Under the pieces are notes generated by a model that did not search any database, had not been told where the DNA came from, and saw only the letters and a list, made by a program, of their open reading frames with translations. Positions 5,875-7,229 of a stretch of 64,000 bases of DNA are shown here, in pieces (position 1 is the first letter of the stretch; each line of letters begins with the position of its first letter). This DNA is from Promethearchaeota archaeon (GTDB lineage: Archaea; Asgardarchaeota; Lokiarchaeia; Sigyniarchaeales; SOKP01): contig JAHLWS010000062.1 in NCBI GenBank assembly GCA_019057795.1, positions 1-64,000 on the forward strand, in the 5' to 3' direction. A program made the translations under genes and the position numbers.

Positions 5875-7229
5875 TTACTCACCTATCTTTTCTTTCACTT
5901 TTTCAATTAATCTTTCTAATATTTCTTTGTCAGACAAACATTCTCCAGGTGGTTCCTTTACTTTTCTCAATCTTAAAGGAACATTATCCATACGGTAAGC
6001 AGTTCCCTCGCACTCAATACCGGCAAACGCTGCAGGCAAAATTACGTCGGCAAATGCAGATGTCGGCGTTTCATGCGGTTCTATTGAAATTAGGGGATGT
6101 TTGAATAAATTTCTTACTGATGCTGCGGGAAAATTACTTGCCGGATCAGAGGCTACAATTAATGCTGCGTCTACTTCGTCTCTCATTAGAAGATCAACAG
6201 AAGAGAATTCTCCAGGATTATAACGCGGATATCCTCTTGAAAAGTCAATAGAATACGCGTAACCTGTATTCCAAGTAAAAACTTGATTTGCTCCAGCGAC
6301 ATTGTAATGCCCTCGCATGGGTGTCAAAAGAAATTTAGTATGGTCGTTCAGCTCCCTAACTAAGCATATTGCTGTGTCAACGTTGCGATGATGTGCTAAT
6401 GTTTGCGTTAAACCCATGCCAAAGAAGATTACTCCAAACTTACACGACTTTAATATTTTCACTAGTTCTTTCATTTTTTCTAATGGAACGCCAGCAACCT
6501 CTTTTACGTCTAGCTCTGTACCTCTTACCATTGCTCTAATTGCATTTAATAGTTCGTAATCCTCGTTAGGATTTATTTTAATGTATAAGTCTGCAATTTG
6601 GGCAGTGTGAGTATTTCTCGGGTCTACAACTACGATAAATCTATCGTTTCTACCATCAGTTCTAAAATAACCCCTCACAAAATTGCTGTATCTACTTAAA
6701 TGTCGAGGGTGAGCATGAACTGGATTAGACCCCCAAAAAATTACTAAATCGGCTCTATTTTTATATTCTCCTAAAGTGGACGATGGCGCACCGACATCTT
6801 GAATTGCTAATAAGCTAGGACCGTGACAAACCGAAGCTGTATTATCCAAAAGAGCGTTTAATGTTTCTGCTAACTCAACGCCTTTACTTTGGGCTTCACA
6901 TTCAGTGCTGGAGAATCCATACAATAAAGGTCTTTTGGCATTAACTAATATCTCGGCAGCTTTATCAAGTGCTTCGTCCCATGAAACTTCTTTAAACTCT
7001 CCTTTATTTTTAATTAAAGGCTTTAAATAACGATGCTCGCTATTTGAGGATAAGAATTTTTTACTGCCGATTTGGCAAGCGTTTCTCACTTCAACAACTT
7101 TATTTTGTTTAACATCCATATCTATTTCAAGATCGTCGCAAAATGTGCCGCATACCGCAAAATACTGATATAGTATTATCTAAACGGGCAAGGAACATCA
7201 TAGACGGTCTTAAGCTTTCTTTCTACCAT
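5875..7229 (-). CDS. fwdB: Formylmethanofuran dehydrogenase subunit B, predicted spliced: exon1 7182-7229, exon2 5875-7152 (441 aa)
   Basis: ASVCHGPS, KNRADL, HPRHLSRYS, MRGHYNV, EGTAYRMD; N-terminal CPFCGTFCDD is restored only by removing 7153-7181; AGGAGG upstream of ATG 7229. Confidence 0.92.
7153..7181 (-). other. Putative 29-nt BHB intron in fwdB pre-mRNA
   Basis: Exon helix UUGC/GCGG, central helix CCGU/GCGG, 3-nt bulges UU^A and UA^U, intron stem AAUACU/AGUAUU; canonical cut sites restore frame and Cys motif. Confidence 0.85.

Follow-up and report, generated by a model that had tools for sequence, protein, structure and literature searches.

The fwd operon and the broken frame of fwdB

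The window, i.e., the whole stretch of 64,000 nucleotides that we have analyzed, comes from contig C62 of a genome of 4.95 Mb with 31% GC, and the nearest relatives of its fwdB are labelled Promethearchaeota. Its minus strand carries an operon in which an intact fwdD (7243..7638) precedes fwdB and an intact fwdC (5023..5871) follows it, with a FwdF-like polyferredoxin, a ferredoxin and a mvhD-like gene further upstream. A fwdA without stops (50664..52355, minus strand) is found unlinked on the same contig, which completes the Fwd set. The fwdD stop is immediately followed by a ribosome-binding site AGGAGG (7237..7242, minus strand), 7 nt ahead of the true fwdB start, an ATG at 7229. From this ATG, 16 codons (exon 1, 7182..7229, minus strand) lead to CPF, with the first Cys of the CxxCxxxC motif, and are followed by AGA-TAA. 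The 29 nt located at 7153..7181 (minus strand, hereafter site A) thus bring in a stop codon (TAA at 7178-7176) and a frame shift, and the frame read from 7229 amounts to a 17-aa peptide. Beyond them, exon 2 (5875..7152, minus strand) has 425 codons plus the stop, starts with CGTFCDD, keeps the SVCHG metal-ligand motif and scores above the cut-off of TIGR03129. In two distant fwdB sequences (L276 and L281) the metal-ligand Cys codon is a TGA, and they are probably selenocysteine forms; the gene of the window is a Cys form.

In the DMSO-reductase family the N-terminal CxxCxxxC binds a [4Fe-4S] cluster. The frame retrieved by the ORF caller (5875-7119, 414 aa) is exon 2 read from an internal ATG. 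It obtained 598 bits with the TIGR03129 profile, starting at profile position 17, and matched residues 28-441 of an intact relative at 96% identity; with this relative the FwdB chain 5T5I_B aligns from the CPFCG motif of that relative onward. Deletion of 7153-7181 restored a single open frame of 441 codons with CPFCGTFC, the same length as the intron-free orthologs. When the DNA was aligned to genome G020, that has no insert and is 87% identical around the site, the gap was 7153-7181 with no sliding possible, and a motif-free protein-to-DNA alignment also gave one best placement. The case for an intron rests mainly on these boundaries because they were fixed independently of any fold. The earlier note had claimed that the insert splits the CPF/CG motif and that its removal gives a 441-aa FwdB, and open frame, ortholog length and unique gap all confirmed it; the frames also agree with its statement that, as it stands, the gene can give only the 17-aa peptide or a protein without the cluster.

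The gene appears to be alive. The dN/dS between this fwdB and its sisters was 0.05–0.10. Its private changes past codon 24 were 16 synonymous and 3 non-synonymous (19 codons), and these could predate a recent insertion. In the clade formed by L221, L229 and L232, all with the intron, dS was 0.23–0.31 and dN/dS 0.11–0.15, and the frames were open. If a gene that purifying selection maintains keeps a frameshift at codon 17, its expression must include a step that corrects it. There is a second pair of FwdB-like and FwdA-like genes at C80:105963-109267, possibly an Fhc-like complex; its FwdB-like protein, the only one apart from the FwdB of the operon, is 34% identical and has no His after the metal-ligand Cys, and the FwdA-like one is below the family cut-off. 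The fwdB copy of the operon is likely to be essential, the FwdB-like paralog on another contig weighing against certainty.

Predicted fold of the transcript

Around the insert the transcript is predicted to fold into a bulge-helix-bulge (BHB). The central helix pairs CCGU of exon 1 (7184..7187, minus strand) with GCGG of the insert (7155..7158, minus strand). The first strand is followed by the bulge UUA (7183-7181), with a predicted cut between 7182 and 7181, and the second by the bulge UAU (7154-7152), with a cut between 7153 and 7152. On the intron side the hairpin (7159..7180, minus strand) consists of a 6-bp stem (7177-7172 with 7166-7161), a 5-nt loop AUAUC (7171-7167) and two weaker closing pairs. 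On the exon side there is a proximal helix UUGC/GCGG (7191-7188 with 7151-7148; outer limits 7148..7191, minus strand), 100% paired in five carriers of a site-A insert, and then a long exon-exon stem (7211-7203 with 7137-7129) that covers the flanking tract of codons 7–24 (7129..7211, minus strand). The boundaries fixed by homology coincide with the cut sites of the splicing endonuclease EndA, after the second base in each bulge. The G-U and A-U pairs adjoining the central helix on the intron side were absent from the minimum-energy fold, lying 0.4 kcal/mol above it, and were formed in the consensus of the five carriers. The computed probability of the helix was 0.7 for this copy and 0.3–0.95 for the other site-A carriers. 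Folding reproduced the helices, the two 3-nt bulges and the second-base cuts described before, with two intron-side pairs weak in this copy.

With exons and boundaries fixed by homology, a strict BHB was found in 0.12% of 20,000 shuffled inserts (p 0.0012), and a strict BHB plus an equally stable stem in 0.005% of them. In a genome-wide scan for BHB and frame rescue that made no use of homology, true and mirror geometries did about equally well (49 vs. 41), and homology-free scans gave no excess either over control lengths shifted by one base. The BHB motif alone, without homology, proves nothing in this genome. The top candidates of the homology-free scan, C11:43775 (+) and C49:81154 (-), have long exons and strong BHBs of 30 and 29 nt, and homology gave no confirmation of them. 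The insert had no match in Rfam, and this and its 29 nt led us to reject a group I or group II self-splicing intron. The hairpin that intron-free mRNAs form at the hotspot was not unusually stable (a median of 44% of the other segments were as stable). A scan with a sigma-70 promoter model, which does not fit archaea, gave chance levels.

Inserts at the same and nearby sites in relatives

We compared 150 fwdB loci, 144 of them covering the motif, and searched for inserts of 10–90 nt. All those found fell in the CPFCG codons, at three sites no more than 11 nt apart, and none was located elsewhere in the gene. Among 94 distinct near orthologs, 82 were intron-free and 12 had inserts of 29–30 nt, every one a hairpin. 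Site A was occupied in 5/94. Homologous inserts at site A were found in five distinct sequences other than ours (L221, L229, L232, L223=L225=L291 and L290); two named genomes with it, DZ2S.368 and WORC5, came from a pattern search, and the insert of WORC5 is identical to that of L223. The insert of the window and that of L229 agree in 22/29 bases. Site B, 7 nt downstream of site A, was occupied in six distinct sequences (L013:2945-2974, L035:2946-2974, L039:2951-2980, L222, L226 and L244), and site C, 4 nt upstream of site A, in one (L261:540-569), with a central helix of 4 Watson-Crick bp. Two sites were never found together in one sequence. The intron at site A was absent from all six sister sequences (protein >90% identical). 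A loose pattern search for site B retrieved chance hits only, and no insert was detected in the other genes of the fwd operon (15–41 loci each). Some of the sequences compared (L009, L013, L017, L021 and L030) are titled Odinarchaeota, Hodarchaeota or Nanopelagicaceae while their fwdB is nested among Promethearchaeota, and they are probably mislabelled or mis-binned.

The inserts have changed in a way that preserves the fold. In the five aligned carriers of site A, 94% of the cells were paired (100% in the central and exon helices, 92.5% in the intron helix), and RNAalifold returned the BHB unprompted, together with a long exon-exon stem. At this site 4 pairs had two-sided changes (5/500 shuffles), including 3/8 of the hairpin pairs among carriers; at site B, where the motif is relaxed on the exon side and includes an internal loop, the signal was stronger, with 8 two-sided changes and 0/500 shuffles as high. 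There are five to six related sequences per site, and these figures are counts of covariation and not probabilities. The exon codons that the helices require were found in 5/5 site-A carriers vs. 1/82 intron-free orthologs. The alignment of fwdB 5' ends across relatives, proposed before as a check, thus favors a BHB intron both by presence and absence of the insert and by stem covariation.

These comparisons bear on three other readings. The first is an inactivating insertion, in which fwdB would be a young pseudogene with a fold due to chance. This AT-rich genome abounds in BHB-like folds, and with only 19 privately changed codons past the tract the insertion here could be recent. However, in another clade the site-A insert has been kept through a dS of 0.3 at a dN/dS of 0.11–0.15, the inserts of sites A and B carry compensatory changes, the 12 hairpins of 29–30 nt are all gathered in an 11-nt stretch of the gene, the remaining fwd set is intact and the best RadA ortholog of the genome is interrupted likewise (see below). 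We regard a pseudogene as very improbable.

Secondly, the transcript could do without splicing, either by a ribosome bypass (a hop like that of T4 gene 60, or a frameshift) or by a restart at ATG 7119. A stop one codon past the break, followed by a hairpin, and a second TTT inside the insert are what a bypass could use, and ATG 7119 does open the 414-aa frame of a shortened FwdB. Nevertheless, a hop to the matching TTT (a 23-nt deletion) would give CPFAVCG, with the wrong Cys spacing, while the restart product would lack three cysteines of the motif and ATG 7119 has no ribosome-binding site. Inserts of 29 or 30 nt in three phases fit no single recoding rule, whereas the BHB rule fits all the inserts but for one central-helix pair. 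Translation of the uncut message is scarcely plausible on these grounds.

The third, an assembly or sequencing artefact, could find some support in the exact junction 30-mer not being found in a metagenome collection, from which records of this genome itself may be absent. Diverged homologous inserts at the identical site of independent assemblies, two of them named genomes, make such an artefact very unlikely, and we give it practically no credence.

Splicing enzymes and tRNA introns

The genome codes for two EndA paralogs (C69:74212 and C74:72339) and one RtcB (C70:112485), all without stops. One EndA is nearest to the catalytic subunit of A. pernix (3P1Z) and keeps Y125, H133, K164, R157 and W183 as well as K44 of the specificity loop (PMC3241643). 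The other paralog, by inspection, lacks the His and is probably the structural subunit. Non-canonical introns and the intron of cbf5 are processed by EndA of this two-subunit type. In a partial census of the tRNAs we found eight introns of 27–35 nt at non-canonical positions. The window itself has a tRNA-Cys(GCA) gene (47022-47130, plus strand) whose D-arm is interrupted by a BHB intron of 30 nt (47037-47066); ARAGORN reported no tRNA in the window in spite of this gene. Five LAGLIDADG_3 domains and two reverse-transcriptase domains lie elsewhere in the genome, unlinked to fwdB.

Other coding inserts in the genome

The earlier note had suggested that more such introns could be hidden as frameshifts, and a motif-free census bore this out. 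Roughly 1,300 proteins of three relatives were aligned to the genome, over 405,000 codons that overlap in part, and 544 paralog comparisons were added; together they cover a part of the gene set. Eight well-flanked coding inserts were detected, 29–34 nt long, each breaking the frame or splitting an invariant motif, in six genes. Besides fwdB, these are pfk (two inserts, C70:27462 and 27778), a sugar epimerase (one, C31:7199), radA (one, C32:7531, so that the best RadA ortholog is broken like fwdB), hppA (two, C56:31607 and 31747, one of them in frame and with no stop) and a gene of contig C65 (one, C65:69693). The seven outside fwdB are hairpins of 30–34 nt in conserved motifs. Counting all eight, the central helix in EndA geometry had its full 4 bp in 6/8 and was imperfect in 2/8, the mirror geometry appearing in 0/8. 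Shuffle p values were <=0.02 for seven inserts and 0.15 for one, and ordinary in-frame indels gave no such BHB signal. One further match, C79:71935, was a tandem duplication that could be placed in 14 equal ways and was rejected, as were two hppA readings in antisense.

In the reverse comparison we found no such insert in G008, of the same genus (~296,000 codons), G020 (77,000) or G038 (36,000, from the first 400 kb of its single contig of 4,324,194 bp), inserts shared with the reference being missed by this approach. These alignments show more coding inserts in this genome than in the relatives compared with it, and the number of eight is a minimum. A second copy of the fwdB intron was not found in the genome at <=6 mismatches. 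Many of the hairpins close a 5-nt loop that ends in UC, such as AUAUC (here, L035 and L226) or AUUUC (an intron of tRNA-Gln, radA and hppA), which may point to a shared origin or a binding motif.

Probable splicing of the fwdB transcript

We consider it highly probable that the 29-nt insert is a tRNA-type intron in an mRNA, removed by EndA, after which RtcB joins the exons and FwdB is translated. Sequence, boundaries, fold, covariation, distribution, selection on the gene and presence of the enzymes were observed directly; transcription, cleavage, ligation and translation, like the route of gain and loss, are inferred. The fwd operon would be transcribed, and its transcript would fold around the CPFCG codons as a long exon-exon stem capped by the bulge-helix-bulge. 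The two-subunit endonuclease would cut behind the second base of each bulge, RtcB would ligate the exons and a 441-aa FwdB with its N-terminal iron-sulfur motif would be made. The intron would be a tolerated passenger that lineages gain and lose, and it would belong to a set of ~30-nt hairpin introns that this genome has in tRNAs as well as at seven or more further coding sites. It would persist in an invariant motif because only its exact removal is viable.

The earlier note had gone further and proposed that this splicing acts as a regulatory switch, comparable to that of HAC1/XBP1. Of its proposal that tRNA machinery splices the fwdB mRNA, the BHB intron was sustained by boundaries, covariation and enzymes, and the switch was not. 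Conditional splicing gating FwdB, and hence C1 metabolism, would be compatible with the explanation given above. The unspliced mRNA yields the 17-aa peptide alone, the marginal stability of the BHB could make splicing rate-limiting and the cbf5 intron has been proposed to act as a negative regulator (PMC2738675). On the other hand, the position is not conserved: all six sisters and 82/94 orthologs have no intron, only 5/94 use site A, others use two alternative sites, and the carriers are not a clade. Nor have the other genes of the operon any insert (15–41 loci each), while radA, pfk, hppA and the epimerase have no obvious common pathway and the genome of the same genus lacks such inserts throughout its ~296,000 aligned codons. 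Splicing of HAC1/XBP1 by IRE1 resembles the predicted splicing of fwdB in the non-spliceosomal removal of a short intron that changes the frame and in the RtcB-type ligation known from animals. It differs in its nuclease and in the motif that is cut, and it has a position that is conserved and a signal that has been demonstrated; fwdB shares none of these. A switch seems unlikely to us, and the patchy distribution is the pattern of a tolerated, probably mobile insert in a motif that allows only its exact removal.

History of the intron and its flanks

We built the gene tree without the 5' tract and with midpoint rooting, and do not claim a direction of donation. The minimum number of changes on this tree was three for site A and four for site B, and a single clade of carriers was rejected for both (AU p 1.4e-10 and 1.1e-33, respectively). 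The flanks of the intron disagree with the rest of the gene. Over codons 7–24 none of 15 synonymous codons differed between this gene and L221 and L229, vs. 50% in the rest of the gene. Over the same codons, 9–12/16 synonymous codons differed from its own sisters, vs. 8–19% elsewhere. Among 3,149 equally distant intron-free pairs none was as close in codons 7–24, and in the comparison of this gene with L221/L229 no other segment was as close as this one (lowest 3/16). Site B reproduces the pattern in L226, whose flanks differed from its sister at 11/17 synonymous codons (14% elsewhere) and from other carriers at 3–6 of 14–17 (43–53% elsewhere). In the gene of the window, 8/27 private codons fall in 16 positions (p 6e-7). 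Such clustering is too high for neutral drift and indicates that recombination or strong selection acted on the flanks; either way, the intron would be removed from the message.

The shared flanks are suggestive of movement of the intron between lineages by gene conversion, together with ~50 nt of flanking exon. They would also suit an old intron, often lost, or one gained singly, with selection holding the third positions of the exon stem. In this respect, 11/15 of the shared third positions are paired in the consensus exon stem, and exon stems had a median of -11.5 kcal/mol in carriers vs. -8.0 kcal/mol. Codons 10, 13 and 20 of the tract, three amino-acid codons, are host-like. Homing is typically marked by co-conversion of the flanks. 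At site A we found neither a long form nor one with an endonuclease; the 3' junction pattern occurred only in 29-nt forms and gave no match in viral contigs. A homing-endonuclease-bearing intron was rejected here, there being no endonuclease ORF in or beside the 29-nt insert, whose neighbours are fwd genes. It is possible, if slightly doubtful, that Loki-type archaea harbor a family of ~30-nt protein-free BHB mini-introns in tRNA and protein genes. These would move laterally from one distant lineage to another, through short-patch gene conversion that takes ~50 bases of exon along, and colonize invariant catalytic motifs of many mRNAs, and the tRNA machinery would routinely splice mRNAs in some of the prokaryotes most closely related to eukaryotes.

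Comparison with known introns

There is prior evidence of similar introns in Crenarchaeota. The pre-mRNA of cbf5 has BHB introns of 16–44 nt (Watanabe 2002; Yokobori 2009, PMC2738675), whose splicing was shown by cDNA (PMC2738675). Yokobori 2009 (PMC2738675) mentioned that introns in other protein genes had been predicted and were unconfirmed, and discussed loss via cDNA and descent from endonuclease-bearing introns. Schwarz 2020 (PMC7714728) gave cbf5 as the sole earlier mRNA BHB intron and added a case in a Haloferax 5' UTR. In the literature searched, which leaves out most subscription journals, no archaeal coding sequence other than that of cbf5 has a confirmed EndA intron (PMC7714728, PMC2738675), and we found no paper on BHB introns in coding sequences of Asgard archaea. 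The fwdB case resembles cbf5 in the short coding intron (29 nt here), the catalytically vital codon, the cuts between second and third bulge bases, the two-subunit EndA and the gains and losses. It differs in the phylum (Asgard) and the gene, in having three sites in one motif and, in one genome, at least eight inserts spread over six genes vs. one site in one gene, and in carriers scattered over the gene tree that share their flanks, splicing being predicted here from sequence. Membership in the cbf5 intron family, defined by the catalytic Asp codon of cbf5, was rejected since the host gene is fwdB; the mechanism class is the same.

Another EndA substrate in an mRNA, as the fwdB insert is a candidate to be, is the 46-nt intron of HVO_1309 (Haloferax volcanii), for which cleavage was obtained in vitro; it lies in the 5' UTR, outside the coding sequence, and restores no frame (PMC7714728). 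The rRNA BHB introns, with their homing endonucleases and short deletion derivatives (PMC2738675), share with fwdB the BHB boundaries, the conserved target sites and the patchy presence. Unlike them, the fwdB intron has no endonuclease ORF in or beside it, and a long form was not found at the site. Closest in its hosts is the work on Asgard tRNA BHB introns (bioRxiv 10.64898/2026.10.13.758758), with repeated lineage-specific gains at BHB-capable sites and a two-subunit EndA; the tRNA introns of our genome measure 27–35 nt, similar in size to its coding inserts. That study deals with tRNA genes only, focuses on other Asgard classes, makes no mention of mRNA or cbf5 and considers the arrival route the central open problem. 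Here the target is an mRNA whose flanks may hold a signal of transfer. Synonymous sites exist in coding flanks and not in tRNAs, which makes the arrival route of Asgard BHB introns testable, and if the conversion reading is true the discordant flanks record how such introns arrive.

If several core genes are split in this way, protein-gene splicing free of a spliceosome would be ordinary in part of the sister lineage of eukaryotes, and intron gain and loss could be traced among close relatives. Genes of this kind would also be mis-annotated as pseudogenes or truncated, and a FwdB devoid of its iron-sulfur motif would skew metabolic reconstruction.
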